This document shows positions 2,857 to 55,292 of a stretch of 64,000 nucleotides of DNA, piece after piece. A model generated the notes under the pieces. It saw only the letters and a program-made list of their open reading frames with translations, was not told where the DNA came from and searched no databases. Made by a program: the position numbers and the translations under genes. Source of the DNA: Escherichia virus TH44; the sequence record MT446415.1; one strand, 5' to 3'. Position 1 is the first letter of the stretch. Each line of letters begins with the position of its first letter.

Positions 2857-2897
2857 GATTCCATACTGAGTTACCAAATAAACAAACGGAGAATAAA

Positions 2898-3104
2898 ATG
2901 TTAGAATTAATCAAAGCTGCTGGTGAAAAAGGTCTGATGGTTAACACTCGTGACCCAGAACAACGTCAAGCATTTGGTGAGTTAAAAGCCAAAGGGCTGG
3001 TTAAAGCATCCCTTGGTATTGGTAATGCTTTGCGTGTGACTTTGACCCCTGCAGGTAAAGCAATGTTCTTCCCTAAACCATTACCAAAACGTCGTCGCAA
3101 GTGA
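2898..3104 (+). CDS. hypothetical protein, basic C-terminus
   Basis: 68 aa; preceded by promoter/leader/SD. Confidence 0.5.
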   Translation: MLELIKAAGEKGLMVNTRDPEQRQAFGELKAKGLVKASLGIGNALRVTLTPAGKAMFFPKPLPKRRRK

Positions 3105-3110
3105 GGAATT

Positions 3111-3413
3111 ATGAAGAAGTATGAACTTGACATGATTGATGCATGTCTGAAATCTGCTGACCATTTTAAGTTGAAAATGCACAAGTTAAGAGGAATGATC
3201 AAAACTCCAGAAGAGAAGAAGCGATATGCTCTGAAGGAGAAATGTAAAGCTCTTATCATGATGGATAAGCTGCAAATGGTCGCCGCAGAAGCCCACAGGA
3301 CACGTAAAGCTGAGGCCCTTGGTGTTTATATGGCAGAGCAGCTTCATCGCGCCCAGCAAGCTGTTAAGAGCGTCTGGTTCAGCGGTGAAAATACTGAAAG
3401 AACTTTTAATTAA
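3111..3413 (+). CDS. hypothetical protein
   Basis: 100 aa ORF with SD. Confidence 0.5.
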   Translation: MKKYELDMIDACLKSADHFKLKMHKLRGMIKTPEEKKRYALKEKCKALIMMDKLQMVAAEAHRTRKAEALGVYMAEQLHRAQQAVKSVWFSGENTERTFN

Positions 3414-3416
3414 ATG

Positions 3417-3445
3417 TGTACATAGTATGGGGATAGACGTATAAT
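3417..3445 (+). promoter_or_regulatory. early-type promoter with class-A leader
   Basis: TGTACA-17-TATAAT; -10 flanked by inverted repeat agtatgggga/ttcccatact. Confidence 0.6.
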
Positions 3446-3481
3446 GTTCCCATACTGAGTTACCAAATACTGGAGAATAAA

Positions 3482-4006
3482 ATGGAAGCCAAATCAATCT
3501 TTAATCTGATTAATTACAATAATGGTAATTTTAAATCAGAAGCACAAAGTAAGTTCTTTAATGATGTTGCTTGTGCAGGCGAGATTACAGTATCAGGTGG
3601 TCAGACTTATAAAAACGCCTGGAACTGGATTGTGACTGTTGATTCAGTTGGTATTGTTGATGTGTATAAAAACACCAACAAAAACCGCTCTTTGTTCTGG
3701 TCAAGAGAGACTAATGCAGAATATCAAGCGGCAAGAGCAAAGAAAAATATGCCTACTGAATCTGATGTACAAAACATCAAATCAGATATTCAATATTATG
3801 ATGGTCTGATTGCTGAACAACAAGCGGTGCTTGATAAGTTCAATGAAATCAAGGCGTGTAAAGAGATTCCTGAATTCATGAGGGAATCAGTTAATGAACA
3901 ATACAATCTCACTTCAGAGCGTATTGAAACCTATACCAAACAAAGAGCAGAGCGCCAGGTACTCCTTCAGAAGTTTGAAGAGCGTTTAAAGACGGTTCTC
4001 GCATAA
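3482..4006 (+). CDS. hypothetical protein with C-terminal coiled-coil
   Basis: 174 aa; C-terminal ~70 aa heptad-like helical segment. Confidence 0.6.
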   Translation: MEAKSIFNLINYNNGNFKSEAQSKFFNDVACAGEITVSGGQTYKNAWNWIVTVDSVGIVDVYKNTNKNRSLFWSRETNAEYQAARAKKNMPTESDVQNIKSDIQYYDGLIAEQQAVLDKFNEIKACKEIPEFMRESVNEQYNLTSERIETYTKQRAERQVLLQKFEERLKTVLA

Positions 4007-4069
4007 ACGCTTTATACCAAGGATGGTATAATGGTTCTGACCTTTGATTAATCTATTGAGGAAATTATT

Positions 4070-4918
4070 ATGTCACAAGCAATTAATGAAATTCGTTCTG
4101 AAGTTAAAAACGCTGTTAAATTCACAGGACGTATTCCAAGCACTAAAGATGTGGTTTTAAATGTTCTGTATATGATGTGGAATAAGTTCAATGTTTGTAC
4201 TAATTCTGCTGAATTCACTAAAATCTTTGAAAAGACCAAAGGTCTTCTTACATTAGAAGACCGAGTCATGAAATCTCTTCATCGTTCAGGTATGTTGTCT
4301 CGTGCTAATGCCAAAATTATTCTTAAAAAATATAACAAAGGCTATGACCTTTATGGTCGTGCGATTAGCACCATGACGTTTGATGAAGTGGTTAAAGACC
4401 TTTGGAAGAACCAACGTCGTTTACTGGCGCTTGGTGCGCGTCTTGCGAGTGGTCAAGATAAACAAATGACCTTTAAAACCAATAATTCTTTAGATTATAA
4501 ACTATTTAATGTTATTAAAGGTCAAAATGAAGGCGAATACAGTATTTCTTCTTTTAGTGGATGTCAATACGAAAACTGGAAATTCCATCTTCGTTTGGCG
4601 TTGTCTGTACTGGAATGCCACGGTGTTCTTACCTTTTATGATGTTCAAACTGGAGGCGTCCAGCGTATTAAATTATGTCAAATTAAAGACCAAGTTGAAG
4701 CCAGCCCTTCAGAACAAGCTCCTAAAATGGAACCTGTTCCAGTGCGAAGCAATGAAAAATATTCAGAGCAAATTGAGCTTTTCACTAAACAGATTGAAGA
4801 ACTTAACATCACCATCCAGCAACAAGATGATGAAATTTTCCGCCTGACAGGGTTGAACAGCGCAGCGAAAGCTGAACGTCAGAAACTGATGAACGTTATT
4901 GAATTGCTTAAGGATTAA
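4070..4918 (+). CDS. hypothetical protein with C-terminal coiled-coil
   Basis: 282 aa; globular N-terminal region, C-terminal amphipathic helix ending LLKD. Confidence 0.6.
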   Translation: MSQAINEIRSEVKNAVKFTGRIPSTKDVVLNVLYMMWNKFNVCTNSAEFTKIFEKTKGLLTLEDRVMKSLHRSGMLSRANAKIILKKYNKGYDLYGRAISTMTFDEVVKDLWKNQRRLLALGARLASGQDKQMTFKTNNSLDYKLFNVIKGQNEGEYSISSFSGCQYENWKFHLRLALSVLECHGVLTFYDVQTGGVQRIKLCQIKDQVEASPSEQAPKMEPVPVRSNEKYSEQIELFTKQIEELNITIQQQDDEIFRLTGLNSAAKAERQKLMNVIELLKD

Positions 4919-5002
4919 TAATGGAATGGCTTGCTGTTCTTGGTTATGTAATCATCGCCACAGGTATTCTGTGGCTGATATTCTCAAATATTGTAGGTTA
5001 AT

Positions 5003-5218
5003 ATGGAAATAGTAGGTTTTATTCTCCTTTACTTTGTGCTAGGATTCATAACGACCATTATCATTCATAAATCGGGTGATTGGAATCCAATCGAAATTGA
5101 ATCAAGCTATGACGCAGTATTCATTACACTAGTATGGCCTCTGCTTTGGTTTGTTTGGGCAATTATGATGGTGTTTTGGCCTATTGCTAAATTCTATGAA
5201 AAATTATTTGGACTATGA
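5003..5218 (+). CDS. small membrane protein
   Basis: 71 aa, two hydrophobic helices. Confidence 0.4.
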   Translation: MEIVGFILLYFVLGFITTIIIHKSGDWNPIEIESSYDAVFITLVWPLLWFVWAIMMVFWPIAKFYEKLFGL

Positions 5219-5219
5219 T

Positions 5220-6104: not shown

Positions 6105-6105
6105 T

Positions 6106-8605: not shown

Positions 8606-8894
8606 GCCATGGTATACCGCTCGATGGGAAACTGTCGAGCCAGAGGAACCTGTTTACAACGATTCCGAAATAGATTATAATGAACCTTCAAACAATGATT
8701 TAATCGATATGAGGTTTGGATATGAGTACCAAAATTGAAGTTGGCCGTCACAAAGGCCGTCTGATTGAACATTCACTTTACGAATTGTCGGATTCTCGTA
8801 AGTTACCCGATGAAGAATCTGCTTTAATTTTTGCTGCAGCTGACTACATTCATTGGCTTGAAGCACAACTCCGCTTTTCTGATGAGGCCTTTTA

Positions 8895-10877: not shown

Positions 10878-10944
10878 AAAGGGGTGTACAAGCCCCTTTG
10901 AATGATGTATCATTATCCCATCAACTACTGATGAGGAAAACATA

Positions 10945-11121
10945 ATGACTATCCAAGATAAAGAAATTAAAGTCAACCAGTATTATTCAATCAACGGCAA
11001 AGCTGTTCTAGTGACTGGAATATCTAGCCTGGATGTGTGGTATACCATAATTGACCTTAATATTAAAATGATTTGTGACCGTGGTGTATTTTGTTCGATA
11101 GCTAAGGAAATCAAATTATGA
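10945..11121 (+). CDS. hypothetical small protein
   Basis: 58 aa; class-B leader 'ATCCCATCAACTACTGATGAGGA' upstream; stop overlaps next ATG. Confidence 0.45.
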   Translation: MTIQDKEIKVNQYYSINGKAVLVTGISSLDVWYTIIDLNIKMICDRGVFCSIAKEIKL

Positions 11122-11880: not shown

Positions 11881-11903
11881 GGGGTCATGGTATAATGACC
11901 CCA
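11881..11903 (+). promoter_or_regulatory. -10 element (TATAAT) embedded in palindrome GGGGTCA/TGACCCC
   Basis: ggggtcatggtataatgacccc; same architecture as class-C promoters. Confidence 0.45.
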
Positions 11904-11944
11904 GGATAATAAAATTTTAATTGAATGAGACTGAGGAATATATC

Positions 11945-14638: not shown

Positions 14639-14662
14639 TGCTTTATATTCGAGATGATAAAA
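14638..14662 (+). promoter_or_regulatory. middle-type promoter (MotA box TGCTTTA, 12 bp, TAAAAT)
   Basis: matches T4 middle promoter architecture; motA is in the window. Confidence 0.5.
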
Positions 14663-17981: not shown

Positions 17982-18016
17982 TGTTTTAAAACAAGGATGT
18001 TATAATAGAGGCTATT

Positions 18017-24338: not shown

Positions 24339-24407
24339 GTGTTTACAACGGCAATGGATTGCCGTATTATTACCTCATCAACTGATGAATAACTTAAGGA
24401 TATTAAA

Positions 24408-24650
24408 ATGGAAACATTAATTGCGGGTACTGTTGTTCTTGGTGCAGGTTCTTTCTTCCTGGCTGCACTGGCATATTTTCTGCCGTGGATTATCGCGCTG
24501 CTGCGTGGTACCAAAAGTAATTGTGGAATCTTCTTTGTTAACCTCCTGATAGGTTGGACAATGGTCGGATGGTTTATTGCATTTATCTGGGCACTCGTTG
24601 CTGAACGTAAATCAAACGCACAAGTAATTATCATCAAGGAAGCAAAATGA
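24408..24650 (+). CDS. small membrane protein (position of T4 imm)
   Basis: 80 aa, two transmembrane helices; homology to Imm not established. Confidence 0.5.
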   Translation: METLIAGTVVLGAGSFFLAALAYFLPWIIALLRGTKSNCGIFFVNLLIGWTMVGWFIAFIWALVAERKSNAQVIIIKEAK

Positions 24651-27157: not shown

Positions 27158-28581
27158 AAACTATTTTATCCCAGCTACTCTTTAACAAGGAATATTTTGT
27201 TAAAGTCTGGCCATATCTGAATAACACATATTTTGAAAAGGGTCCTGCAAAGACCCTTTTTAATACGATTAACGAACACGTAAAAGAATATCAAGCGGTA
27301 CCAACTAAGACTGCACTTGATATCGCGCTCGACAGTTCTGACCTTTCTGAAGTCGAATATGAAGGCACAAAGAAACTCTTAGGAGTCCTGGCCGATACTC
27401 CAGAAGACCAGGAATGGTTGGTTAAAGAAACCGAGAAGTATGTGCAGAAGTCTGCGATGTTCAATGCCACATCCAGGATTATCGAAATCCAGAGTAATGC
27501 CGAACTTCCGAAAGACAAACGTGATAAACGAATCCCGGATATTGGCGCTATCCCCGACATCATGCGCGATGCATTGTCTATCTGTTTTGACTCTGCTCTG
27601 GGTCATGACTGGTTAAACGATTACGAAGCTCGATTCCAGACTTATCTGAACAAATCGAAGAAGGTTCCGTTCCGTATTAACATCCTGAATAAAATCACAA
27701 AGGGTGGGGTTGAGTACGGTACAGAGAACGTTTTACTGGCCGGGACAAACGTCGGGAAATCCCTTGGACTTTGTTCGTTAGCGGCTGACTATCTTCAGAC
27801 TGGCCATAATGTGCTTTATATAAGCATGGAAATGGCAGAAGAAGTATGTGCCAAGCGTATTGACGCCAACTTGCTGGATGTATCTCTGGATGATATTGAT
27901 GAAGGTCATATATCGTGGGCAGAATACAAAGCTAAGATGGAAAAATGGCGTGCAGCAGGGACTCTTGGGACTCTGAAGATAAAACAATATCCAACTGGCG
28001 GTGCTCATGCGGATACCTTTCGTGCATTGCTGAATGAATACAAACTGAAGCAAGGGTTTGTGCCGGATGTGATTATTGTTGACTACCTAGCAATCTGTGC
28101 AAGCTCAAGACTGAAAACGTTTACCGAAAACAGTTACGGTCTGATTAAGATGGTTGCAGAAGAACTTCGTGGTCTGGCGGTCGAGAAAAATGTGGTCCTG
28201 TGGACTGCAGCACAGACAACCAGGGGTGCGAACGTTGCAGCTGAGATTGATATGGCTGACATCGCAGAATCATTTGGTATTGCTCACACGGCCGACTTTA
28301 TGTTGGGTGTTGTTGAGACCGAAGAATTCGCTCAAATGGGACTACAGTTAATCAAACAGCTTAAGTCTCGTTATGGCGATAAGAACTACTATAATAAATT
28401 CAAGATGGGTGTTAAGAAAGGTAATCAGCGCTGGTATGAGGTTGATGATGATTCAGCTCCTAAACAAGGCCCTACGGTTAAAGAAGCCACTGGTGAGATG
28501 AATCGCCAGGCTGAAATGAATAGACAAACCAGGGTCAACAGGAGCGACCTGGACGACCTTGCTGCTCAAATGAAATTCTAA
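27142..28581 (+). CDS. 41: replicative DNA helicase gp41 (DnaB-like)
   Basis: 479 aa; Walker A 'GTNVGKSLG', RecA-like core. Confidence 0.94.
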   Translation: MVEVVETILSQLLFNKEYFVKVWPYLNNTYFEKGPAKTLFNTINEHVKEYQAVPTKTALDIALDSSDLSEVEYEGTKKLLGVLADTPEDQEWLVKETEKYVQKSAMFNATSRIIEIQSNAELPKDKRDKRIPDIGAIPDIMRDALSICFDSALGHDWLNDYEARFQTYLNKSKKVPFRINILNKITKGGVEYGTENVLLAGTNVGKSLGLCSLAADYLQTGHNVLYISMEMAEEVCAKRIDANLLDVSLDDIDEGHISWAEYKAKMEKWRAAGTLGTLKIKQYPTGGAHADTFRALLNEYKLKQGFVPDVIIVDYLAICASSRLKTFTENSYGLIKMVAEELRGLAVEKNVVLWTAAQTTRGANVAAEIDMADIAESFGIAHTADFMLGVVETEEFAQMGLQLIKQLKSRYGDKNYYNKFKMGVKKGNQRWYEVDDDSAPKQGPTVKEATGEMNRQAEMNRQTRVNRSDLDDLAAQMKF

Positions 28582-28600
28582 AGACCTTCGGGTCTTTTTC
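28581..28600 (+). terminator. rho-independent terminator
   Basis: agacc-ttcg-ggtct + TTTTT. Confidence 0.7.
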
Positions 28601-28670
28601 ATTTAGGGGGTTTACATCCTCATAAAAGGGGTGTACTATTATCCCATCAACTACTGATGAGGATAATAAA

Positions 28671-28919
28671 ATGTTATTAGTTAATGTGCATTACCAGTTC
28701 AAATCTGAAGAAGCTCTCCAAAAGTATGCTGACATTTGTGAGCATAATAAAAGAACAGCTGCCATTGTTGGTCTGAAGCCTTTTAAAATTTTGGATTGCT
28801 CCTTGAACAGAGCAAGGCGCTGGTGTAGTGTTGCCTGTCATGCTTCAGTTGAAGGGAATGATTATTTTTTCATTACTTTCAATGCACAAGATTTTCATTT
28901 AATTAATGAATTAAAATAG
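28671..28919 (+). CDS. hypothetical cysteine-containing protein
   Basis: 82 aa; class-B leader upstream. Confidence 0.5.
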   Translation: MLLVNVHYQFKSEEALQKYADICEHNKRTAAIVGLKPFKILDCSLNRARRWCSVACHASVEGNDYFFITFNAQDFHLINELK

Positions 28920-28948
28920 TGTACAAACCCCTTGTCTTAGGACATAAT
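28920..28948 (+). promoter_or_regulatory. early-type promoter with class-A leader
   Basis: TGTACA-17-CATAAT then 'CCATACTGAGTTACACAA'. Confidence 0.6.
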
Positions 28949-28998
28949 GATTCCATACTGAGTTACACAATAAACCAACTGTTAAAAAGGAAAACCAT

Positions 28999-29301
28999 AT
29001 GTTTAATCAAACCGATATGAACCGTTACTATTTTGGTCAGTTCGCTCGCCGTGATGAAAACTGTGCTGCTCTTATCGCATCAGGCATTCAAACTGGTAAA
29101 TTAATAAAGCTCAAAAGCGATGTTCAACCTTCATCTGTTCGCAGCTCTCTTCGTGAGTATCTGCTTGCAGGCGGTGAAGTGTACGTCATCGCTGAACCTT
29201 TTGTTAACGTGTGTGATGATTACACAATTAGTGTGACTGTTATGCACCCAACTACTGGGAAAATTCGTTGTCTGACTATGCACAACTATGAGTTGGCGTA
29301 A
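28999..29301 (+). CDS. hypothetical protein
   Basis: 100 aa ORF. Confidence 0.5.
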   Translation: MFNQTDMNRYYFGQFARRDENCAALIASGIQTGKLIKLKSDVQPSSVRSSLREYLLAGGEVYVIAEPFVNVCDDYTISVTVMHPTTGKIRCLTMHNYELA

Positions 29302-29310
29302 GTGAACAAA

Positions 29311-29332
29311 AGGGGCTTACAGCCCCTTTTTC
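29311..29332 (+). terminator. rho-independent terminator
   Basis: aggggc-ttaca-gcccct + TTTTT. Confidence 0.65.
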
Positions 29333-29370
29333 TTATGTTATAATGACTCTATCAACTACTGGAGAATAAA

Positions 29371-29688
29371 ATGAAAACCATTGATTGCAAGGCAGAATAC
29401 AAAGTTTATTATCATGGGTCAAGCTCTAATGCTGGAATCCAAAATATGCTTTGTCCTCCTGATGCAACTGGTGTTCTGTCAGAAGTTGGACGTAAGAAAA
29501 ATTTAGGGCGTGTGTTTTTTACTGAAGATATTGGTTTGGCGCGTATCTATGCAGGAAGAGCAGCTCGCTCATATGGAGGAGAACCCCGTCTTTATCGTGT
29601 GATTGCACCTGTTGACGTGGTTTGTTTAAATGACACTAAAGGCGCAACAGTTTATCACGCCGCATGGGCGTTTTGTGAGGAAATCTAA
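29371..29688 (+). CDS. small protein with ART/PARP-like 'YHGS' motif
   Basis: 105 aa; 'YYHGSSSNAGIQNM' and 'GRVFFTEDIGLARIYA' resemble the H-G-S and Y-region motifs of H-Y-E ADP-ribosyltransferase folds (recalled). Confidence 0.5.
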   Translation: MKTIDCKAEYKVYYHGSSSNAGIQNMLCPPDATGVLSEVGRKKNLGRVFFTEDIGLARIYAGRAARSYGGEPRLYRVIAPVDVVCLNDTKGATVYHAAWAFCEEI

Positions 29689-30234: not shown

Positions 30235-30235
30235 G

Positions 30236-30264
30236 TGTACATCAAAGGGATAATGCAGTATATT
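30236..30264 (+). promoter_or_regulatory. early-type promoter; -10 flanked by palindrome GGGATAAT/ATTATCCC
   Basis: TGTACA-17-TATATT, class-B leader. Confidence 0.5.
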
Positions 30265-30292
30265 ATCCCTATCAACTACTGAGGAGATTGAA

Positions 30293-30586
30293 ATGAAAAA
30301 GTTATTAATCGCAGCAATTCTTACCGTAGCATCATGTGGTACAGCTCCAGTTACTGCTGGACTTGATAAAGACCTTTGTGAGTGGTCTATGACTGCGGAC
30401 CAGACTGATGTTGAACACCAGATTTATGCTGACATCATGAACATTACTAAACGTGACCGCCCAGATATGGTTAAAGAAGTATCTGACCAACTGGCTTCTG
30501 GTGACGTTATGCAGTATAACTATGTTCTGTATTGCGATGCTTCATTTGACAACAGCAAGATTGTTCAATGGGTTACAGGTGAATAA
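30293..30586 (+). CDS. putative lipoprotein
   Basis: 97 aa; signal peptide with lipobox 'VASCG'. Confidence 0.5.
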   Translation: MKKLLIAAILTVASCGTAPVTAGLDKDLCEWSMTADQTDVEHQIYADIMNITKRDRPDMVKEVSDQLASGDVMQYNYVLYCDASFDNSKIVQWVTGE

Positions 30587-34320: not shown

Positions 34321-34333
34321 TAGATTAATTATA

Positions 34334-34357
34334 GGGAACCTTCGGGTTCCCTTTTTG
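34334..34357 (+). terminator. rho-independent terminator
   Basis: gggaacc-ttcg-ggttccc + TTTTT. Confidence 0.7.
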
Positions 34358-34379
34358 CTTTTAATAGAGATGGTATAAT
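34356..34379 (+). promoter_or_regulatory. middle-type promoter (TGCTTTT, 11 bp, TATAAT)
   Basis: MotA-box-like element overlapping the terminator T-tract. Confidence 0.4.
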
Positions 34380-34404
34380 TATCTCAACTACAGAGGAGAA
34401 TACT

Positions 34405-34602
34405 ATGTTAAACCGTTGGATTAAACCGAATAAAACTTTAGACGAAGTTATTGCCCATGATGTACATTTTAAGTATGGTCTGGGTGCGTTTGATGAGGTT
34501 ATCGTGCACTCGTTCATGATGCACGATGATGATTCTTTAGAATTCAATATTGAAATCCGTTGTGATGATGGTAAAGTTGAATTTAAACGAGGTTTCTTAT
34601 GA
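34405..34602 (+). CDS. hypothetical protein
   Basis: 65 aa; leader variant 'CTCAACTACAGAGGAGA'. Confidence 0.45.
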   Translation: MLNRWIKPNKTLDEVIAHDVHFKYGLGAFDEVIVHSFMMHDDDSLEFNIEIRCDDGKVEFKRGFL

Positions 34603-36225: not shown

Positions 36226-36786
36226 ATGAACATCATCAAATCTGATACCGAACCCAACCAGTTAAAATTTAGTGAAATGGAGATAGCTTCATTATTTGAA
36301 TGCCGCACATCAAAGGTTGATAAGACCTTGCATTCAAACATCAACGCAATCATCAAGTCAAGGTTGTCTATACCTGATACAGTCTTGTATCGTGGGGTCA
36401 CCCAACAAGAGATTGATTTGTTAGATGAAGCAAAAGAATCAATGCAACCTTTTGAATTTGGACGGATAACCTCCTTTACAGAAGACTATGGTATTGCCAG
36501 GGATTTTGCTGCAATGGAATATGTGTCAAGGACTATCATCAGATTGAATCAGACCAAAGCTTTTTGTTACCATGATGCGATGCGCAAAATCGCGCTTGAC
36601 GTCCCACTGGAATTCTTCAATACTGCTTCTGGTTCCGAACAGGCAGCAACGTTAAGACGTGAAGAATACATGGACATGATTGATTCTGAGCTTGAATGGT
36701 TTGTTCCAGTTGACCAGAAATTCGTGGTGGTTGATGCTGGATTTGTTGGTGATTATTATGTTCTTGACTGTGTACAAGAGCTATAA
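36226..36786 (+). CDS. modB: Mod-type ADP-ribosyltransferase (R-S-E class)
   Basis: 186 aa; 'LYRG' Arg, 'ITSFTED' STS-like, 'ELEWFVP' Glu motif; position as T4 modB. Confidence 0.6.
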   Translation: MNIIKSDTEPNQLKFSEMEIASLFECRTSKVDKTLHSNINAIIKSRLSIPDTVLYRGVTQQEIDLLDEAKESMQPFEFGRITSFTEDYGIARDFAAMEYVSRTIIRLNQTKAFCYHDAMRKIALDVPLEFFNTASGSEQAATLRREEYMDMIDSELEWFVPVDQKFVVVDAGFVGDYYVLDCVQEL

Positions 36787-36830
36787 GACACGTTAAGATG
36801 TTCCTATCAACTACTGATGAGGATAATAAA

Positions 36831-37445
36831 ATGCTGTACACTGATGACGTTTTGAATGGAATTATTGATATTGCTGCTACTAGCGAGTCTTTTCGTAACC
36901 AATGTCAAGCGGAGATTGATGCTCTTTACACAGATAATGAGCAATCAGTACTCTGGCAGTGTATGGAAAATAAACCTGACCTGATTCAAGAAGACTTAAC
37001 CAGGATTATCCGCAACAATCTGAATACTGCACCGCCAGCGGCATTGTTCCGTGGTATATCAAAGAAAACTATGGAATACCTGGAAGATTTCAGATATGTT
37101 GGGGCGACAATTGAGTTCAATCGTGTGATGAGTTTTTCCAGGGACTGGCAGGTTGCAAGAAATTTCGCATCATATAGTTTCTATGGCACAAGGAATATTT
37201 TCTGCATAAACAATGCACCATATGCGTATAACTATCAGGAAGCAATCTTCAAAATGATTTGTGGTGCTCCTCCTGAAGAGTTCAATGGTGCATATCCAGA
37301 AGCAACCAGGAAATCAAACTTACACCTGGTTAATGATGAGGATGAGTTTATGTTTCCCGCTGGGACTACGCTCCGCGTAGACTTGATTGAAACTCACCCA
37401 TTGAATAACCTGTATACTGTTTGGCATTTGACTGTTTTGAACTAA
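36831..37445 (+). CDS. modA: Mod-type ADP-ribosyltransferase (R-S-E class)
   Basis: 205 aa from leader-supported ATG; 'LFRG', 'MSFSRD', 'DEDEFMFP'. Confidence 0.6.
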   Translation: MLYTDDVLNGIIDIAATSESFRNQCQAEIDALYTDNEQSVLWQCMENKPDLIQEDLTRIIRNNLNTAPPAALFRGISKKTMEYLEDFRYVGATIEFNRVMSFSRDWQVARNFASYSFYGTRNIFCINNAPYAYNYQEAIFKMICGAPPEEFNGAYPEATRKSNLHLVNDEDEFMFPAGTTLRVDLIETHPLNNLYTVWHLTVLN

Positions 37446-37504
37446 CCAAAGACCTTAGAACCATTATACACAGTAAAAATAAAAGCGTTAAAGGCAAAAA
37501 GTAG

Positions 37505-37532
37505 TGTACACACCCAATGGATGGTGTATAAT
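37505..37532 (+). promoter_or_regulatory. early-type promoter with class-A leader
   Basis: TGTACA-16-TATAAT; -10 flanked by ATGGAT/ATCCAT. Confidence 0.55.
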
Positions 37533-37579
37533 GAATCCATACTGAGTTACCAAATCGTCCGTAAGATGAGAAAAATATC

Positions 37580-38326
37580 ATGACTTTATCAAAAACCAAA
37601 ACGCTGAAAGTTAAACGTCGTCTGGAACACACTCAAGCTTCCGCTAAACGTCGCGGTAAAGACTTTAACCTGGATTTTGATTATCTGGTTAACATTCTTG
37701 ACCAAAAAGTTTGTGCTTATTCTGGTGAGACATTTAATAACTCTATTGAAGGTGAGAAGTTATCATTAGAGCGTTTTAACAATGATATTGGTTATATCAA
37801 AGGTAATGTTATTCCTGTTAAAAAGAAATACAATACCATGCGTTCTGATTGGTCCCTAGATGAGCTTAAACAACGTCGCGATGATGTTGCTGTAAAAATT
37901 GCTCGCCCGTCCGTCAAGAAGATTGAAAAGTTAAATCTGACTGCAGAGAAATGGGAACAGATTAAAAAGTCATATACCCATATTAAGAACATCCAGCACA
38001 AACGTGATAATCGCGTTAAGCATTATGCTCAAATGAGCAAATCAGAGCAGTCCAAAGAAAACCAATTAAAAATGGTTGCTCTGAAGGCTCGCATTGATGG
38101 TTCCCGTGTTGCGGAAGGTCATGAGCTTACTAAATTGAATGTCCTGCTCAAAGGTAATGACTGGAAGGTTACCAAGAAATTAACTAATGCTGAAACGCTT
38201 TTTGATTGCTATGATAAAATCATTCAAGGTCTTGAGCGTTTTGAGAAGATTGGTTTTATTGGTAAATTAAAACTGAAACGTGGTCTGCCTTTGAACGCGT
38301 CAATTTTTAAACTGATTAGAGGTTAA
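37580..38326 (+). CDS. hypothetical basic protein (position of T4 srd)
   Basis: 248 aa; lysine-rich. Confidence 0.5.
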   Translation: MTLSKTKTLKVKRRLEHTQASAKRRGKDFNLDFDYLVNILDQKVCAYSGETFNNSIEGEKLSLERFNNDIGYIKGNVIPVKKKYNTMRSDWSLDELKQRRDDVAVKIARPSVKKIEKLNLTAEKWEQIKKSYTHIKNIQHKRDNRVKHYAQMSKSEQSKENQLKMVALKARIDGSRVAEGHELTKLNVLLKGNDWKVTKKLTNAETLFDCYDKIIQGLERFEKIGFIGKLKLKRGLPLNASIFKLIRG

Positions 38327-40184: not shown

Positions 40185-40866
40185 TGCTATTATTGACTTT
40201 GAAACTCTGGGAAACGGCTCGAAGGGAGCCGTTATTGACCTGGCCCTGATTACATTCGAATCTGACCCTGCTATTGTGGAATCGTTCGAAACCCTGGTTA
40301 ATCGCGGCAAACGCATTAAGTTCAGTCTCGAATACCAAAAAGGAAAACGTCTGTTTGACACAACAACCATGGGTTGGTGGAAAAAGCAATCAGCGGAAGC
40401 ACGTGTTAACCTGGCTCCTTCTGCGCATGATGTTGATACTCTGACCGGTATCCAACAGGCGATTGACTATCTGAATGGCAATGGAATTAACAAATACGAA
40501 AGCCTTATGTGGTGCCGTGGGATGTCTTTTGACTTCCCGTTGTTTGTCGACCTTATCCGCGACCTACAGCGCAATGAGGGGATTCCTGAGCGCGAATTGA
40601 ATACCTATGACCTGGAGCCGGTCGTATTCTGGAACCAGCGTGATATCAGGACAGCAATCGAAGCCTTGTCACTCGTCCGTAAGATGTGTGAAACCCCATT
40701 ACCGAAAGGGACTTTAGATGGATTTGTGGCGCACGATTCGGTACATGACTGCGCGAAAGATATTTTGATGTTGAAGTATGCCCAGCGCTATGCTCTTGGT
40801 TTAGATGAAGTTCCTTCCGAAGAAGATGCAGACCCGTTATCTTTACCGAAAAACGATAAAAAGTAG
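40177..40866 (+). CDS. dexA: exonuclease A DexA (DnaQ-like)
   Basis: 229 aa; 'IDFETLG' Exo I motif; position next to dda. Confidence 0.85.
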   Translation: MIDAIIDFETLGNGSKGAVIDLALITFESDPAIVESFETLVNRGKRIKFSLEYQKGKRLFDTTTMGWWKKQSAEARVNLAPSAHDVDTLTGIQQAIDYLNGNGINKYESLMWCRGMSFDFPLFVDLIRDLQRNEGIPERELNTYDLEPVVFWNQRDIRTAIEALSLVRKMCETPLPKGTLDGFVAHDSVHDCAKDILMLKYAQRYALGLDEVPSEEDADPLSLPKNDKK

Positions 40867-40895
40867 TGTACAAGGCCAATGGAAAGAGACATAAT
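40867..40895 (+). promoter_or_regulatory. early-type promoter with class-B leader
   Basis: TGTACA-17-CATAAT then 'CATCAACTACTGATGAGGA'. Confidence 0.55.
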
Positions 40896-40926
40896 CATCT
40901 CATCAACTACTGATGAGGATAACAAA

Positions 40927-41184
40927 ATGATTACTTCTTTTGAAATTGGCCAACAATATGAAATGTCTGCTCTTCAAGCTGCTGAAGCAGGTCTGACCAA
41001 AGCGTTTGAATGTGCATTTGCAAATATTCGTGGTAAAATCTTTACTGTCAATAAAATTGCGGTATATGATAAAGAAACAGATATGAACAAAGGCATCTAC
41101 CTGAACGTGTCAAATGCAAAAGGTCGTCGTGAAATTATGGTTGTACAACCTAATCAACTGGCGATGTTCAATAAGGTTGCATAA
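40927..41184 (+). CDS. hypothetical protein
   Basis: 85 aa from leader-supported ATG. Confidence 0.5.
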   Translation: MITSFEIGQQYEMSALQAAEAGLTKAFECAFANIRGKIFTVNKIAVYDKETDMNKGIYLNVSNAKGRREIMVVQPNQLAMFNKVA

Positions 41185-50984: not shown

Positions 50985-50995
50985 TTAAAAAGTAG

Positions 50996-51024
50996 TGTAC
51001 ATCAGTATGGAGTCTATGTATAAT
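50996..51024 (+). promoter_or_regulatory. early-type promoter with class-A leader
   Basis: TGTACA-17-TATAAT; perfect 9-bp inverted repeat CAGTATGGA/TCCATACTG around -10. Confidence 0.6.
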
Positions 51025-51228
51025 GATTCCATACTGAGTTACCAAACAGACTGGAGAATAAAATGAAACCTGCTCAATATGCAATGACTTTATACCTTGA
51101 AGTTAATGGCGATATTACTGAATTTTTTAAATTAATGCAACAGCGCGGAAAAAGTTTTGCAGTTACTGAGCGTCAATTTTACGCTTGCCGTAAAAATACA
51201 TACAATCGTTATGCGTGAGGAAAACAAA

Positions 51229-51489: not shown

Positions 51490-51761
51490 GCAGCAAAACC
51501 TGGTGTCTTATCTGGATATTGTGTATCCCAGTAATTTGCGTTTGTTTTAGTTTATTATTAATGAAACTTGCATAAAAAAGTGTACATCTCCAGTGGTTGT
51601 AGTATAATGAACCTATCAACTACTGGAGATGATTATGAAAAAGTTACTTAAAGCTATTTGGAACATGTTTGTGCTGTTTGTTGTCCTGAGCATTTTCCCA
51701 ATTGTTTTTATGATTGACCATGTGCGTGTTTACTTTAACTATTTCTTTTGAGGATAATATT

Positions 51762-51968: not shown

Positions 51969-52210
51969 AACTTTTTAAAGACATTGCAGTTGGTGAAAAA
52001 TTTGTCCTGGGTAATGGTCAACAACTGATTCGCATTTCGCCTTTAATGGATAACAGTGAACGCCCTGTGCGCACTGAAAACTGTTTGGATTATCCTTTTT
52101 ATCAGAAGCGTTTTGCAATTGAAAATAATACTGAGTGTTTCACAGTTGATGAACTGATGGAATCATCAGAAGAAGTTGACTTGTGGGATGGCGCAGTTGA
52201 TGTAGAATAG
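51965..52210 (+). CDS. hypothetical protein
   Basis: 81 aa ORF. Confidence 0.45.
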   Translation: MKLFKDIAVGEKFVLGNGQQLIRISPLMDNSERPVRTENCLDYPFYQKRFAIENNTECFTVDELMESSEEVDLWDGAVDVE

Positions 52211-52239
52211 TGTACAAACTCTTGGGAGCAGAGTATAAT
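52211..52239 (+). promoter_or_regulatory. class-C promoter (-10 inside palindrome)
   Basis: tgtaca..cttgggagcagagtataatgctcccag. Confidence 0.6.
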
Positions 52240-52278
52240 GCTCCCAGTGGATAATAAAATTTAACTGAGGAAATCATT

Positions 52279-52623
52279 ATGTCTAAAGTATTTTTTGGTA
52301 ATCGCAACATTATGTTCTTTAAACAGATTAGCGTATCAGAAGCATTTGATTTAAGTTATTCGGGCGGCACAAAAGCTGTTAACCTTAAAAATTTGATGTC
52401 TGCAGAATTTGCATTCTATCAGGACCCTGAAACTGGTTTCTACAAATTTATTAAGTTCCGCATGACTATGGACCGCGATTATCGTGATGTTTATTATACA
52501 AGTTATGAAAGTGTTGTGAATGCAATTCGTGAAGCTTATGGATTGGATTCGTTATCTCTTGACCGCCTGTATAATGCAAGCCTTTACACCAGCGGATTTA
52601 TTTTAGAACAGCTTCAAAAATAG
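52279..52623 (+). CDS. hypothetical protein
   Basis: 114 aa ORF. Confidence 0.5.
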   Translation: MSKVFFGNRNIMFFKQISVSEAFDLSYSGGTKAVNLKNLMSAEFAFYQDPETGFYKFIKFRMTMDRDYRDVYYTSYESVVNAIREAYGLDSLSLDRLYNASLYTSGFILEQLQK

Positions 52624-52652
52624 TGTACAAACTCTTGGGGTCAGAGTATAAT
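52624..52652 (+). promoter_or_regulatory. class-C promoter (-10 inside palindrome)
   Basis: tgtaca..cttggggtcagagtataatgaccccac. Confidence 0.6.
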
Positions 52653-52696
52653 GACCCCACTGGAGCACAAAACTTTAACTTACTGAGGAAATTAAT

Positions 52697-53146
52697 ATGA
52701 ATACTTACATGACCCGTCGTGACGTACTGAATGCTGGCGCTACCACTGTTGCTTACATCCATAATGGTAATTATGTCGCCGGTCGCCCAACTAAAGAAGC
52801 TATCACCCAACCGGGTTTTTATTTTGTAGTTAAGGGTGAAGGTGAATCGCGTATTGTTGCGGCACGTTTTTACGTTGGTAACCAACGTTCACAACAAGGG
52901 TTTGACACTGTATTAAGTCACATCCGCAAACAGCGTTCACAACTGTCGCGCACAATGGCGAACAATGGTGTTATCTATGAAGTTCTGTTTGTTCCGGTTT
53001 CTAAAATGAAGCCTCTGACAACTGGTTATGGTAAAGGTCAAATTGCAATGGCGTTCACTCGCTCACATAGTTCTGATTGCCAGACCCTTTCAGAAATGAA
53101 TCGCATGCTTGCTGATAACTTTAAATTCATTCTGCAGAGCTATTAA
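52697..53146 (+). CDS. ndd: nucleoid disruption protein Ndd
   Basis: 149 aa; '[28 protein letters not shown]...[17 protein letters not shown]...[12 protein letters not shown]' matches T4 Ndd as recalled. Confidence 0.8.
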
Positions 53147-53147
53147 T

Positions 53148-53321
53148 ATGAGACATTTCTTTACAATGGGTTACTTATTTGTTTTAGCACTATTTGTTAT
53201 TACAGGAGCCTTTATAGCCTTTGGCGCTCCATTTAATGATAAAGTTGCTGTTACTATGTGCTTTAGTGGCGGATTTATCTGTTTTGAACGTTTATGTAAA
53301 ATGTGTGGTATATATGAGTAA
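53148..53321 (+). CDS. small membrane protein
   Basis: ~58 aa, hydrophobic. Confidence 0.4.
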
Positions 53322-53705
53322 TTTCCATAATGAACATGTGATGCAATGGCATCGCCATAATCTGAAATTAACTGGCGTCTTTGGACGCCCTTGAGGAAAA
53401 TATGATTATTCTGGCTTTTATCGAACTTATTATTGCCGTGGTTTGTTCAGTCTGCTTCTTTTTAGGAGTCTGGACTCCAAGCACATTTTTCATGGGCGCG
53501 ATGTTTATTGCATGGGTTATTTCTGGAATTGTAAGTCTGGCGCGGTATGCGAAAAAATGATTAAGAAAATCTTGGGCTACTCGTTAGCCCTTGCTGCCTT
53601 ATTGGTAGCGCTGTATTATGGAGTTGTATTTGCATTAGTGCAGGTTGTGCTTTTTATTTCTGATGCTATAATGGCAGTACATTCGTTAATCTGGTAAGGT
53701 GATAT

Positions 53706-55085
53706 ATGTCTGACGTTTTAAGTATGATGTCCAAACAGTTCAGTGATTCCATGGGGACCCTTAACCCACGCAGTCTAAAAGACATTATTGATGTGGAAGC
53801 ATTATCATATGCTATCTACACTGTGGAAGGTCGCGCAATCCCAAACATGATTGATGGTTTTAAACCAGTTCACAGATTTGTTATGGCGAGAGCATTAGAC
53901 CTGGCACGTGGTGATAAGAATAAATTCCATAAGGTTGCATCCATCGCAGGTGGCGTAGCTGATTATGGTTATCACCATGGCGAAGCATCAGCGGAAGAAG
54001 CAACTTCTGGTCTGGTCGCAACATATAAAAATGAATACCCCATGTTTGATGGACAAGGCAACTTTGGTTCCAGAATGGTGCCAGAAGCATCATCAGCTCG
54101 TTATGTATTCGCACGGGTTTCAAAGAACTTTTATAACTTGTTTAAGGATACAGAATATGCTCCGGTCCATCCTGATGAAGAACATAAGCCTCCTGCTTTT
54201 TATCTTCCTGTTATTCCTACTGTATTACTTAACGCCACTTCTGGGATTGCTGTTGGCTTCGCTACTGATATTCTGCCTCATTCGTTCCAGGACGTCAAGG
54301 AAGCTGTTAAAGCTATCGTGGAAGGTCGGGAGCCGGTTGCTCCGAAAGTAAAATATCCAGAATTCCGCGGTAAAGTTGTTGAGCTGGAAGAGCCTGGTAA
54401 GTATGAGCTTCATGGCACGTACAAAATGACTTCCAGGACCCAAATGGAAATTACTGAAATCCCGGTCCAATGGAACCTGGAAAAGTATACAAGTAAAATC
54501 CTGGACCCGCTGGAAGAGAAAGGTTTTATCACCTGGAAAGATAACTGCGGCGAGCATGGTTTTGGGTTTAAGATTAAATTCCGCAAAGAATACAAGCTGG
54601 ATGGCACCGAAGAAGAAAATCATGAGAAAATCATGAAAGACTTTGGTCTGATTGAGAAGCTCTCCCAGAACTTAACAGTGCTTAATCACAAAGGCAAGCT
54701 GGCTGAATACACCAACACGCTTGACCTGATTCGTGATTTCGTTGATGTCCGTAAGACTTATGTTCAAGTGCGAATTGACAGTAAGATTAAAGAAACTGAA
54801 GCGGCATTTAAACTGGCCCGGGCAAAAGTCTTCTTTATTAAAGAAGTGATTGATGGTAAAGTTGTTATCCAGGGGAAACCTCGTAAGAAGTTGATTGAGG
54901 AACTCCAGGCGAGTGAAATATATGGCGATTATGCAGAGAAGTTAGTGGCGATGAACATCTACCATATGACCTCTGATGAAGCTAAGAAGCTTGCGGATGA
55001 AGCTAAGGCTAAGAAAGCTGAGCATGAGTACTGGAAGACAACTGACGTTAAAACTGAATATCTTAATGATTTGGAGGCTCTATGA
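53706..55085 (+). CDS. 52: DNA topoisomerase II medium subunit gp52 (GyrA-like)
   Basis: 459 aa; 'AIPNMIDGFKPVHRF' GyrA-like N-terminus. Confidence 0.93.
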   Translation: MSDVLSMMSKQFSDSMGTLNPRSLKDIIDVEALSYAIYTVEGRAIPNMIDGFKPVHRFVMARALDLARGDKNKFHKVASIAGGVADYGYHHGEASAEEATSGLVATYKNEYPMFDGQGNFGSRMVPEASSARYVFARVSKNFYNLFKDTEYAPVHPDEEHKPPAFYLPVIPTVLLNATSGIAVGFATDILPHSFQDVKEAVKAIVEGREPVAPKVKYPEFRGKVVELEEPGKYELHGTYKMTSRTQMEITEIPVQWNLEKYTSKILDPLEEKGFITWKDNCGEHGFGFKIKFRKEYKLDGTEEENHEKIMKDFGLIEKLSQNLTVLNHKGKLAEYTNTLDLIRDFVDVRKTYVQVRIDSKIKETEAAFKLARAKVFFIKEVIDGKVVIQGKPRKKLIEELQASEIYGDYAEKLVAMNIYHMTSDEAKKLADEAKAKKAEHEYWKTTDVKTEYLNDLEAL

Positions 55086-55176
55086 GCATAGAAAATGAAT
55101 ACGCAGTGATTTGTGCTGCTGTAGCTGGCCTGTTGATTGCCTGGGTTATTGGCAAAGTGATTGATTCTTAAAAACT

Positions 55177-55200
55177 AGGACCCTTCAGGGTCCTTTTTTA
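55177..55200 (+). terminator. rho-independent terminator
   Basis: aggaccc-ttca-gggtcct + TTTTTT. Confidence 0.75.
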
Positions 55201-55214
55201 TTTTAAAAAAGTAG

Positions 55215-55243
55215 TGTACAATCCCCTTGTCTTAGGACATAAT
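55215..55243 (+). promoter_or_regulatory. early-type promoter with class-A leader
   Basis: near-identical to 28920..28948 cassette. Confidence 0.6.
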
Positions 55244-55292
55244 GATTCCATACTGAGTTACACAATGAATCACAAAAACTTTGGAGAATAAA

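Follow-up and report, generated by a model that had tools for sequence, protein, structure and literature searches.

Repeated leaders in the early-gene arm

The window analysed here (64,000 nt of Escherichia virus TH44, MT446415.1) comes from a T4-type coliphage, a Gaprivervirus, and makes up its early-gene arm; it aligned at 91–97% to Gaprivervirus genomes, in the early-gene order of T4. As described in the initial annotation, repeated leader elements do exist in this arm: box A (CATACTGAGTTAC) is present in six exact copies and box B (YATCAACTACTGR) in seven copies plus one variant at 24376, all on the + strand (Table 1). In this T4-like E. coli phage, the repeats are predicted to form the very start of the transcripts made from strong early promoters.

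All six class A sites proposed previously were recovered as exact + strand copies of CCATACTGAGTTAC (2861, 3450, 28953, 37537, 51029, and 55248). With up to two mismatches, seven class A matches were obtained in the window (0.41 expected), the seventh being an inverted copy within a promoter (50997–51010). For the class B core CATCAACTACTGA, 11 matches were found in the window compared to 1.87 expected; it is exact at 10919, 28645, and 40901, and has one mismatch at 30270 and 36805 and two (TATCAACTACTGG) at 29350 and 51614. Seven of the eight class B sites named earlier hold, and the eighth, at 34382 (TATAAT-tatct-CAACTACAGAGGAG), is a truncated variant; the promoter before it is of the middle type, has an extended -10 and, at 34356, a MotA-box-like TGCTT, and lacks a GTGTACA -35. 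A further B-like copy at the imm promoter (24376, CATCAACTGATGA) and a third family, C (11881, 52224, and 52637), had been missed, and the claim of two families therefore has to give way to at least three. A Shine-Dalgarno (SD) site followed by ATG was seen behind every site, as had been stated; the downstream genes are not only small accessory ORFs as assumed and include an ADP-ribosyltransferase gene, srd, spackle, imm, and nrdC.8.

Table 1 Cassettes of the window, all on the + strand.
Cassette	Span	Hairpin, terminator or spacer	-35	-10	Box or leader start	SD or RegB-type site	ATG (ORF)
A1	2790..2900	terminator hairpin 2790-2809	GTGTACA 2827-2833	CATAAT 2851-2856	box A 2862-2874	GGAGAATAAAA 2888-2898	2898 (68 aa, phrog_6001)
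A2 (nrdC.8 orthologue)	3416..3484	13-bp hairpin, spacer pairs discriminator + box, -10 in loop, z -3.85	3416-3422	TATAAT 3440-3445	box A 3451-3463	GGAGAATAAAA 3472-3482	3482
B1	10878..10947	AAAGGGG-tgtacaag-CCCCTTT 10878-10899	in hairpin loop	TATCAT 10908-10913	box B 10919-10931	GAGGA	10945 (58 aa, 55.6-like)
C1	11881..11947	GGGGTCAT/ATGACCCC flanks -10		extended, TGgTATAAT, 11891-11896	CAGGATAATAAAA	RegB consensus at 11904; SD ACTGAGGAAT	11945
B-like (imm promoter)	24341..24410	spacer hairpin CGGCAAT/ATTGCCG	GTTTACA 24341-24347	TATTAT 24365-24370	CATCAACTGATGA 24376-24388		24408
B2	28580..28673	terminator 28580-28597; spacer ATCCTCAT = anti-SD	GTTTACA 28610-28616	TACTAT 28634-28639	box B 28645-28657	GGATAATAAAA 28661-28671	28671 (82 aa, goF-like)
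A3	28919..29001		28919-28925	CATAAT 28943-28948	box A 28954-28966		28999 (100 aa)
B3	29308..29373	terminator GGGGC-ttaca-GCCCC + T-run 29308-29330, z -3.5	in terminator loop	TATAAT 29339-29344	TATCAACTACTGG 29350-29362	GGAGAATAAAA 29361-29371	29371 (105 aa)
B4 (spackle, sp)	30235..30295	GGGATAAT/ATTATCCC overlaps -10	30235-30241	TATATT 30259-30264	30270-30282	GAGGAG	30293
B-like, middle-type promoter (mrh.2)	34333..34407	terminator 34333-34352	TGCTT (MotA-box-like) 34356	TGgTATAAT, 34374-34379	CAACTACAGAGGAG from 34385		34405
B5 (ADP-ribosyltransferase)	36770..36833		36770-36776	TAAGAT 36794-36799	36805-36817	GGATAATAAAA 36821-36831	36831 (204 aa)
A4 (srd)	37504..37582	16-nt spacer	37504-37510	TATAAT 37527-37532	box A 37538-37550		37580
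B6	40866..40929		40866-40872	CATAAT 40890-40895	40901-40913	GGATAACAAAA 40917-40927	40927 (85 aa)
A5	50995..51065	spacer GTACATCAGTATGG 50997-51010 = inverted box, 13-bp hairpin, -10 in loop, z -5.2	50995-51001	TATAAT 51019-51024	box A 51030-51042	GGAGAATAAAA 51053-51063	51063
B7	51580..51637	~18-bp stem 51585-51631, spacer with box, SD and first AUG (51629), z -6.9	51580-51586	TATAAT 51603-51608	TATCAACTACTGG 51614-51626	GGAG	51635 (38 aa)
C2	52210..52281	GGGAGC/GCTCCC flanks -10	52210-52216	TATAAT 52234-52239	CAGTGGATAATAAAA	RegB consensus at 52249; ACTGAGGAAAT	52279
C3	52623..52699	GGGGTC/GACCCC flanks -10	52623-52629	52647-52652	CACTGGAGCAC...TTACTGAGGAAAT		52697
A6	55177..55295	terminator 55177-55194	55214-55220	CATAAT 55238-55243	box A 55249-55261	GGAGAATAAAA 55283-55293	55293 (71 aa)

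Comparison with relatives placed several of these cassettes. The B5 ORF is modA by synteny with VR7, B6 corresponds in position to the promoter that precedes motB.2 in T4 (map position ~8.2 kb), C2 is homologous to the T4 motB promoter, and the orthologous sp promoter of T4 has CATAAACTACTGAGGAG. The 3' end of the srd box varies among relatives (GTTAC, GTTAT, GTTTT), and the srd leader of T4 lacks CATACTGA.

The conserved 3' block of the leaders (GGAGAATAAAATG or GGATAATAAAATG) is the SD site, and it fits GG*AGRAYARAA, published as the consensus of strongly cleaved RegB/S1 sites (PMC3014915). This consensus had 11 matches in the window (0.83 expected), 10 of them on the + strand and each of these inside a cassette leader. 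As in RegB/S1 targets, GGAGAATAAAA, GGATAATAAAA or GGATAACAAAA serves as SD region in 8 of 14 A/B cassettes, and two C cassettes carry the consensus close to the leader 5' end; the sites are predicted from sequence, and the likeness accounts for the 3' block, not for the 13-nt box. GGAG is present without the full consensus at 30270 and 51614, and four of the 14 A/B cassettes (10919, 24376, 28953, and 37537) have neither a GGAG/GGAU SD nor the consensus. The regB gene, which lies outside the window, is annotated in the relative VR7.

Promoter register and stem-loops

Early promoters had been proposed upstream of the leaders, and those of the A and B sites are indeed of the T4 sigma-70 type, with the middle-type promoter at 34382 as the exception. 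They consist of an A-rich UP region, G(T/G)TTACA, a spacer of 16–17 nt, and TAnnAT, and generic scans recovered the cassette terminators and all A/B cassette promoters except 36770 (8/12 matches there). In the window copies, the box begins exactly 5 nt past the -10 hexamer, which places it at the predicted transcription start, while the ATG follows the box at a variable distance of 20–44 nt. A register scan with exact 11-mers across five T4-type genomes (~360 kb) gave the same spacing for 21 of 22 box A and 29 of 30 box B matches (together 50/52). The start itself is predicted from the sigma-70 spacing rule and from homology to T4 early promoters. When early promoters were pooled across families, the transcribed region held only ~0.5 bit per position, indicating that early promoters do not depend on any one box to function; a box is missing from about one third of the early promoters in the window and from most of those in T4. 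The published logos consulted stop at the start site (PMC1524935).

A terminator or hairpin adjoins or overlaps the promoter in 12 of 17 cassettes, and z-scores between -3.5 and -6.9 were obtained at 6 of the 20 window promoters folded. Spacer and leader share complementary stretches of 7 nt or more in 28–33% of copies compared to 3–4% in shuffles, and the family C hairpins show compensatory changes. Hairpins that involve the box occur in only ~30% of copies, and masking of the SD is predicted in few. In read-through RNA, the SD at 51614 and 28645 is predicted to pair with bases 5' of the start site (and so is, at 51614, the upstream AUG 51629), and transcripts from the embedded promoter lack this upstream pairing arm.

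Candidate roles of the 13-nt box

The best explanation is probably that T4-type sigma-70 early promoters are arranged here as modular cassettes, of which the elements form the initially transcribed part and the short 5' UTR. Each cassette would run from an upstream terminator or promoter-embedded hairpin through the A-rich UP region, the -35, the spacer, and the -10 to a 5-nt discriminator, the box, which would begin at the A of C/T-A-T as the predicted start site, a variable linker, the SD, and the ATG. Host RNA polymerase would initiate at the box right after infection, and the box, as a start-site-anchored element, would most likely tune initiation or promoter escape at very strong promoters and provide a defined, unstructured 5' end, together giving a burst of immediate-early expression. 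RegB might then end this expression by cutting within GG/AG or GG/AU, for which GGAGAAUAAAA and GGAUAAUAAAA are the predicted sites. In about one third of copies, a hairpin between the spacer and the box or SD may mask the leader in read-through transcripts, and not in those from its own promoter. We infer this role of the box from its sequence, which would fit promoter escape, RNA 5'-end stability, and factor binding alike.

Alternatively, the box could act as the 5'-end RNA of the early mRNA and not as DNA in initiation, be it as a loading platform for ribosomes or S1, in 5'-end stability against RppH and RNase E/G, or as a determinant of RegB/S1 susceptibility, a reading we regard as possible but the less likely one. 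The leaders are short, contain little G, and are for the most part predicted to be open, arms with complementarity to the box or SD are a recurrent feature of the spacers, and RegB requires S1 (PMC3014915). In 13 of 17 promoters, the sense strand also forms the more stable of these hairpins, suggesting RNA-level masking in read-through transcripts, although this bias may partly reflect G>C skew. However, a translational enhancer needs no fixed distance to the -10, and it is this register that is invariant and the SD distance that varies. Moreover, the box was never seen at promoter-less intercistronic ribosome sites in the register scan of five genomes, its complementarity to 16S, 23S or 5S rRNA does not exceed chance, and the published determinants of RegB cleavage are on the 3' side of GGAG and not on its 5' side (PMC3014915).

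Comparison of orthologous cassettes showed that the box has diverged at 6 of 299 positions (2%), similar to the -35 (1/161) and the -10 (4/138), compared to 66 of 391 (17%) in the spacer between these hexamers and 26 of 276 in the next 12 nt. Purifying selection on the box is thus as strong as on the promoter hexamers, and the difference between box and spacer indicates that the box is selected and not just recently copied. This bears on the improbable case that the boxes are themselves functionless and owe their identity to recent duplication or recombinational homogenisation of whole cassettes. T4-type recombination uses short homologies (Arbiol 2010), the nearly identical spacers of A3 and A6 (55214) suggest an intragenomic duplicate, and the promoter dialects of the families (AAAAAGTAGTGTACA with YATAATGATTC in A, TAYWAT-tatcc in B) are consistent with common descent. 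Yet homogenisation would be expected to include the spacer, which lies between conserved blocks and nevertheless differs between copies and even between orthologues, and the box is retained across genera with different hosts.

It is unlikelier still that a phage or host protein, such as an early-promoter shut-off factor, recognises the box as a DNA operator (+1 to +13). The fixed position of the box relative to the promoter and its strong, strand-specific conservation would fit, and early-promoter shut-off has been called 'not completely understood' (PMC3014915), but a single factor would not read two to three unrelated boxes that replace each other on orthologous genes; in addition, the box is non-palindromic, many early promoters lack it, and no candidate protein was identified. 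Sigma-70-dependent promoter-proximal pausing, known at lambda PR', is highly improbable here: CATACT of box A (-1 to +5) could pass for a -10-like hexamer, retaining the key A2 and T6 of TATAAT where lambda-type pause elements sit, but position 6 of box B (YATCAA...) is not a T although this box is interchangeable with box A, and no Q-like factor is known from T4-type phages.

Distribution among phages and comparison with known systems

Box A is lineage-restricted, occurring in Gaprivervirus, in Morganella and Providencia phages (five tandem cassettes in Morganella phage MP1), and at one gene of a Dhakavirus (IME341); a scan of 126 kb of T4 found none. Box B is the early leader common in T4, present at cef, imm.1, e.8, trna.4, motA, ndd.6, nrdC.8, and denV of T4 and also in Jiaodavirus KP1. 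The two families are interchangeable on orthologous genes: the nrdC.8 leader is A in the window and B in T4, and frd.1/DUF5417 has a B leader in T4-type phages and an A leader in IME341 and MP1. Different ORFs stand behind identical promoter-leaders, and breakpoints of gene gain, loss or replacement between close relatives coincide with cassettes. For example, the B2 cassette and its ORF (28617–28938) are missing at the same place in VR7, and homology to PSD2001 stops at 51068, by A5.

Box B has the same sequence and register in T4 (TACTAT-acaac-TATCAACTACTGATAC) and is found at the orthologous sp, imm, and post-dexA promoters of both phages, whereas window family A combines GTGTACA with YATAAT instead of GTTTACA with TACTAT. 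In T5 early promoters, the conserved initially transcribed regions reportedly affect promoter clearance, as Kammerer et al. are said to have described in 1986. Those promoters would resemble the present ones in being very strong, used by host RNA polymerase, and conserved from +1 to ~+15–20 with an influence on productive initiation; their sequences are unrelated, and the likeness is one of analogy. Unlike in the hairpin-masked system taken for comparison, the promoter embedded in the cassette hairpins is early, not late, and most copies either mask the box instead of the SD or have no hairpin.

The closest counterparts are the promoter-early stem-loop (PeSL) elements, the 'mobile regulatory cassettes' of T4-type phages (Arbiol 2010, PMC2839356; Comeau 2014, PMC4122927). 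They share the AT-rich upstream region, the sigma-70-type early promoter, the stem-loop upstream of or overlapping it, and the SD and ATG at the 3' end; they likewise cluster in hyperplastic regions before small ORFs and lie at the edges of indels or replacements that distinguish close relatives. This likeness is one of sequence architecture. The PeSL papers define the element as promoter, stem-loop, and SD and single out no start-site-anchored box or leader families; here, in addition, the -35 is GTGTACA and the leader itself forms the 3' arm of the stem-loop in several copies. The repeated 40–90-bp cassettes could provide homology for recombination and thereby shuffle small ORFs, as proposed for PeSL elements. 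In line with the initial annotation, which likened the cassettes to those of T4-type hyperplastic regions, the defining PeSL parts are present together with the indel and replacement boundaries and the leader swaps. The cassettes are modular terminator-promoter-leader-ribosome-site units of a type previously described in T4 relatives, which makes the finding real and mostly ordinary.

Start-site-anchored leader boxes at early promoters

A 12-kb piece of the window aligned at 91–97% identity with the Gaprivervirus genomes PSD2001, MN01, VR7, VR20, VR26, and SP18. The annotation of PSD2001 and VR7 gave the T4 early-gene order nrdC.x, nrdH, 55, 47, 46, 45, 44, 62, regA, 43, uvsX, and 41, continuing with 61, 56, soc, mrh/srh, two ADP-ribosyltransferases, srd, dda, dexA, motB, 39, rIIA, and rIIB. 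Early transcription runs along the + strand, and at ~57800–64000 the coding strand and GC skew turn to the − strand, the end of the early arm. Homing-endonuclease genes of relatives, among them a MobE-like HNH gene of VR7, have no counterpart here (window 17979–18026 and 8608–8628); PSD2001 carries a 717-bp homing-endonuclease gene between 46 and 45.2.

The initial annotation had described two classes of conserved 5′ leaders, A and B, each followed by a Shine-Dalgarno sequence (SD) and ATG. The class A repeat CCATACTGAGTTAC was found exactly at 2861, 3450, 28953, 37537, 51029, and 55248, and at up to two mismatches it matched seven times in the window (0.41 expected). The class B repeat held at seven of its eight noted sites: CATCAACTACTGA or close variants lie at 10919, 28645, 29350, 30270, 36805, 40901, and 51614, with a further copy at 24376, and a search with CATCAACTACTGA returned 11 matches in the window (1.87 expected). 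The eighth site, 34382, did not stand, carrying only a truncated relative (CAACTACAGAGGAG) behind a TGCTT box and an extended −10 without a −35, which is a predicted middle-type promoter. MotA-box-type (middle) promoters were seen upstream of mrh.2 (34353–34379, TTTGCTTTTA-N10-TATAAT) and of gene 47 (14640–14690, TTTGCTTTA-N12-TAAAAT), both with short leaders that have ACTGAGGAG or ACAGAGGAG at the end. A third family, C, was identified at 11881, 52224, and 52637. SD and ATG are indeed present at the 3′ end of the leaders, as in the promoter-early stem-loop (PeSL) cassettes of T4-type phages (Arbiol 2010, PMC2839356; Comeau 2014, PMC4122927).

All 14 A and B sites have a T4-type sigma-70 early promoter (GTTTAC-like −35, 16–18 nt, −10 TAnnnT, A-rich UP region), as do two of the three family C sites, the copy at 11881 having an extended −10 only. 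Each box is preceded by AAAAAGTA-GTGTACA (or GTTTACA), a 16–17 nt spacer, TAnnAT, and five bases, and opens with C/T-A-T. By the sigma-70 spacing rule, transcription would start at the A of this triplet, which fits the C-rich stretch at −3 to −1 in T-even relatives (PMC1524935). A generic promoter scan recovered every A and B cassette promoter except that at 36770 (8 of 12 positions matched) and placed terminator hairpins directly upstream of promoters at 2790, 28580, 29308, 34333, 45748, and 55177. By homology and synteny, the sp, imm, post-dexA, motB-type, and srd promoters correspond in position to T4 early promoters, which have been mapped (Hinton review). The leader of an early-type promoter at 57456–57535 (GTGTACA-N17-TACAAT) is unusually long (~47 nt), starts with TACTGAATAATTGAATG, and carries the direct repeat ATTGAAT.

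The distance from box to −10 is constant, whereas that from box to ATG varies from 20 to 44 nt. Counted over the window and sequence from PSD2001 (48 kb), VR7 (100 kb), T4 (126 kb), and Morganella phage MP1 (24 kb), exact ATACTGAGTTA stood at constant register to the −10 in 21 of 22 occurrences and exact ATCAACTACTG in 29 of 30; one of the two exceptions is an inverted box copy within its own promoter hairpin. Because the −10 distance is fixed, the ATG distance variable, and the register near-invariant, the box is anchored to the start site and not to the ribosome site. The repeats noted in the initial annotation are confirmed.

Selection on the boxes and their exchange between genes

Between copies, spacers differ and flanking blocks are identical. 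When orthologous promoters were found via their coding sequence, mismatches amounted to 6/299 (2.0%) in the box, 1/161 (0.6%) in the −35, 4/138 (2.9%) in the −10, and 7/115 (6.1%) in the discriminator, compared with 66/391 (16.9%) in the spacer and 26/276 (9.4%) in the 12 nt after the box, with the register picked by best −10 and box match, which slightly favours the box. These values point to selection, not recent copying, as the source of box conservation. A purely historical repeat is unlikely because the spacer has diverged and the box has been conserved. Conservation of the T4-type early promoter cassette extends over the first 12–13 predicted transcribed bases, under selection as strong as that on the −35 and −10.

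The families replace one another at orthologous genes. Upstream of frd.1/DUF5417, a T4-type phage has box B and Salmonella phage S16 a degenerate form of it; Dhakavirus IME341 and MP1 have box A there, and the register is unchanged across these phages. The nrdC.8 leader has box A in the window and box B in T4. This interchangeability makes it unlikely that the box is an operator for a shut-off factor. One promoter-leader (28610–28657) precedes a goF-like 82-aa ORF (phrog_2980) here and mobD.5 in VR7 (record ~51.0 kb), homology between the two stopping directly after the box. The complete cassette at 28617–28938 (B promoter and 82-aa ORF, after gene 41) has no counterpart at that place in VR7, which has an extra 364 bp directly upstream of 2790 and an extra 290 bp upstream of 30232; homology to PSD2001 stops 5 nt past the ATG at 51063. 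Homology breakpoints fall at cassettes at 2790, 28617/28938, 30232, and 51068 in the two or three relatives compared. Cassettes cluster at 28.6–30.3 kb and 51–52.7 kb.

The A cassette was found in 48 phage records only, with 10–13 places per Gaprivervirus genome, seven in MP1, a few in Providencia phages, and singles elsewhere. In MP1, five tandem cassettes read GTGTACA-N17-TATAAT-N5-CATACTGAGTTA(A/C)CAAACAAAC...GGAG. A search of 126 kb of T4 returned no exact box A. The B cassette matched in 605 records, including Tequatrovirus and T4-like phages of Klebsiella and Salmonella. In T4 itself, TACTAT-acaac-TATCAACTACTGATAC lies upstream of cef, imm.1, e.8, motA, and ndd.6, close variants of the leader occur at trna.4, nrdC.8, denV, nrdC.10, sp, motB.2, and ndd.4, and the extended repeat common to these promoters is tttttcacaaaac-GTTTACA-N17-TACTAT-acaac-TATCAACTACTGATAC...GGAGAATAAAATG. 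Since about one third of the 34 predicted T4 early promoters carry B or its variants, family B is the ordinary T4 early leader.

With all early promoters pooled, the transcribed region holds ~0.5 bit per position, and published early-promoter logos end at the start site (PMC1524935); together these probably account for the absence of the boxes from such logos. Pooling hides them because several interchangeable families coexist. An IMG/VR scan with a 14-mer returned 120 loci, most of them chance matches, the informative ones being contigs of VR20, VR26, and relatives. Full-text literature searches with the box strings, which did not cover the original T4 early-promoter alignments (Liebig and Rüger; Wilkens and Rüger; Miller 2003), found nothing relevant.

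Promoter hairpins and RegB sites

Among 65-nt folds spanning each of 20 promoters in the window, six were strong, at 3450 (z −3.9), 51029 (−5.2), 51614 (−6.9), 52210 (−3.7), 52623 (−3.9), and 29350 (−3.5), and weaker ones appeared at 10919, 24341, and 30270. The −10 or −35 lies in the loop of these hairpins, and discriminator plus box form the 3′ arm at 3450, 51029, and 51614. Including terminators, an adjacent or overlapping stem-loop accompanies the early promoter in 12 of the 17 A, B, and C cassettes, with none at 28953, 36805, 37537, and 40901.

Stem-loops at the cassettes and the large ORF beyond the early arm
Feature	Position	Strand	z
Cassette terminators	2790, 28580, 29308, 55177		
−35-in-loop hairpin	10878		
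−10-in-loop hairpins	3450, 30270, 51029, 51614, 11881, 52224, 52637		
Weaker spacer hairpin only	24341		−2.3
1100-aa ORF	59312–62614	−	

The hairpin predicted at 51568–51637 (~18 bp, −27 kcal/mol) pairs the spacer with box B, the SD GGAG, and the AUG of a 38-aa ORF. As the −10 of the early promoter lies in its loop, only own-promoter transcripts would expose the ribosome site. Translational gating as at T4 gene e would have a 5′ arm that lies before an internal promoter and pairs with the SD/AUG in long transcripts only; such pairing is predicted at 51614 and 28645, weakly at 10919, 36805, and 11881, and not at the other cassettes. Predicted SD accessibility is lower in read-through RNA only at 28645, 10919, 36805, and 11881.

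Perfect complementarity of at least 7 nt between spacer and discriminator/leader was found in 28% of 39 unique A and 33% of 33 unique B promoters, compared with 3–4% in shuffles, and the T4 cef spacer carries a 13-bp inverted copy of box B. The complementary arm adapts to an invariant box without arm-box covariation. Covariation was seen only in family C, in the arms around the −10 (GGGACC/GGTCCC, GGGAGC/GCTCCC, GGGGTC/GACCCC), where every cell is paired and double changes occur at two of the six pairs (five sequences). The family C regions (11881–11947, 52210–52281, 52623–52699) are homologous to the T4 motB promoter; their GC-rich hairpin of 6–8 bp encloses the −10, with compensatory arm changes between copies and phages. 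Hairpin formation was rejected as the cause of box conservation, a complementary arm being present in only ~30% of copies. A box B 5′ hairpin, CAUCA-acuac-UGAUG, forms at 10919, 28645, 36805, and 40901. Neither the TATCAACTACTGG/GAGGAG variants nor T4 retain it, so it is not the conserved feature.

For RegB, the T4 early-mRNA endoribonuclease that acts with S1, strong intergenic sites follow the consensus GG*AGRAYARAA, also GGAU (PMC3014915). GGAKRAYARAA occurs 11 times in the window (0.83 expected), and all ten + strand matches lie in cassette leaders (four A, four B, two C). The sole − strand match, GGAGAATAAAA at 5017–5027, falls inside a stretch (4920–5108) that does not align to VR7. SD regions are mostly unpaired in predicted folds of own-promoter transcripts, and the leaders contain predicted RegB/S1 sites, in which RAYARAA comes after an unpaired intergenic GGAG or GGAU; candidates include GGAGAAUAAAA and GGAUAAUAAAA. 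In two family C copies the consensus (GGATAATAAAA) lies near the leader 5′ end, not at the SD. Cassettes 10919, 24376, 28953, 30270, 37537, and 51614 have no RegB consensus, 30270 and 51614 keeping a GGAG SD. The regB gene is annotated in VR7 and its locus lies outside the window. Judged from these sites, cassette transcripts may be immediate-early mRNAs built for rapid RegB inactivation.

Possible roles and relation to PeSL elements

The boxes are start-site-anchored, selected, and interchangeable modules inside PeSL-type cassettes. We propose that they would adjust initiation or escape and set the 5′ end of mRNAs expressed in a burst, which RegB would later inactivate, while hairpins would shield some cassettes from read-through and cassette repeats would promote ORF shuffling. 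A function at the RNA level, at the mRNA 5′ end, is possible; at 13 of 17 promoters the sense strand folds more stably than the antisense strand (p = 0.013), a bias that may owe something to G>C skew and hints weakly at such a role. For box A only, a sigma-dependent pause could apply.

Pairing with rRNA was discarded, as shuffled boxes gave stretches of complementarity to E. coli 16S, 23S, and 5S at least as long as the longest found for the boxes, and Rfam covariance models gave no match in the window at gathering score. The shared core TACTGAG, taken as ribosome-site context, accounts neither for box A nor for the box B copies that have a linker before the SD (imm, T4 cef, motA). ACTGAGG is found ahead of promoter-less and middle-promoter start codons as well (9925, 14670), and such context may account for the box B 3′ end where it adjoins the SD.

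A long shot, which we consider very improbable, is that the boxes tag own-early-promoter transcripts and that a dedicated factor, modified RNA polymerase, or modified ribosomes recognise the tag, A, B, and C being interchangeable 'dialects' co-evolved with phage lineages; the tag could then underlie the abrupt, still unexplained early shut-off. Alternatively within this conjecture, RegB cleavage would free many identical 25–35-nt 5′ leader RNAs, which might act as small regulatory RNAs.

The function of the start-site-anchored box is testable in the best-studied phage, box B being common in T4 (motA, cef, imm.1, and others). The cassettes chart ~17 early transcription units of a Gaprivervirus genome precisely and serve as markers of gene shuffling in hyperplastic regions; they may also be of use as expression modules that are compact, very strong, and self-limiting.

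T4-type early promoters with PeSL-type properties support the annotation's reading of mobile promoter cassettes. Leader swaps, the same promoter-leader on different ORFs, and breakpoints at cassettes are properties of PeSL elements that are seen here too, and the cassettes lie in hyperplastic regions and at indel or replacement boundaries between close relatives (two or three compared). They are PeSL/T4 early-promoter cassettes of a kind already known, here in a Gaprivervirus, to which our analysis adds the modest points of start-site-anchored leader families, the strength of selection, orthologue-to-orthologue swapping, and a lineage-restricted box A.
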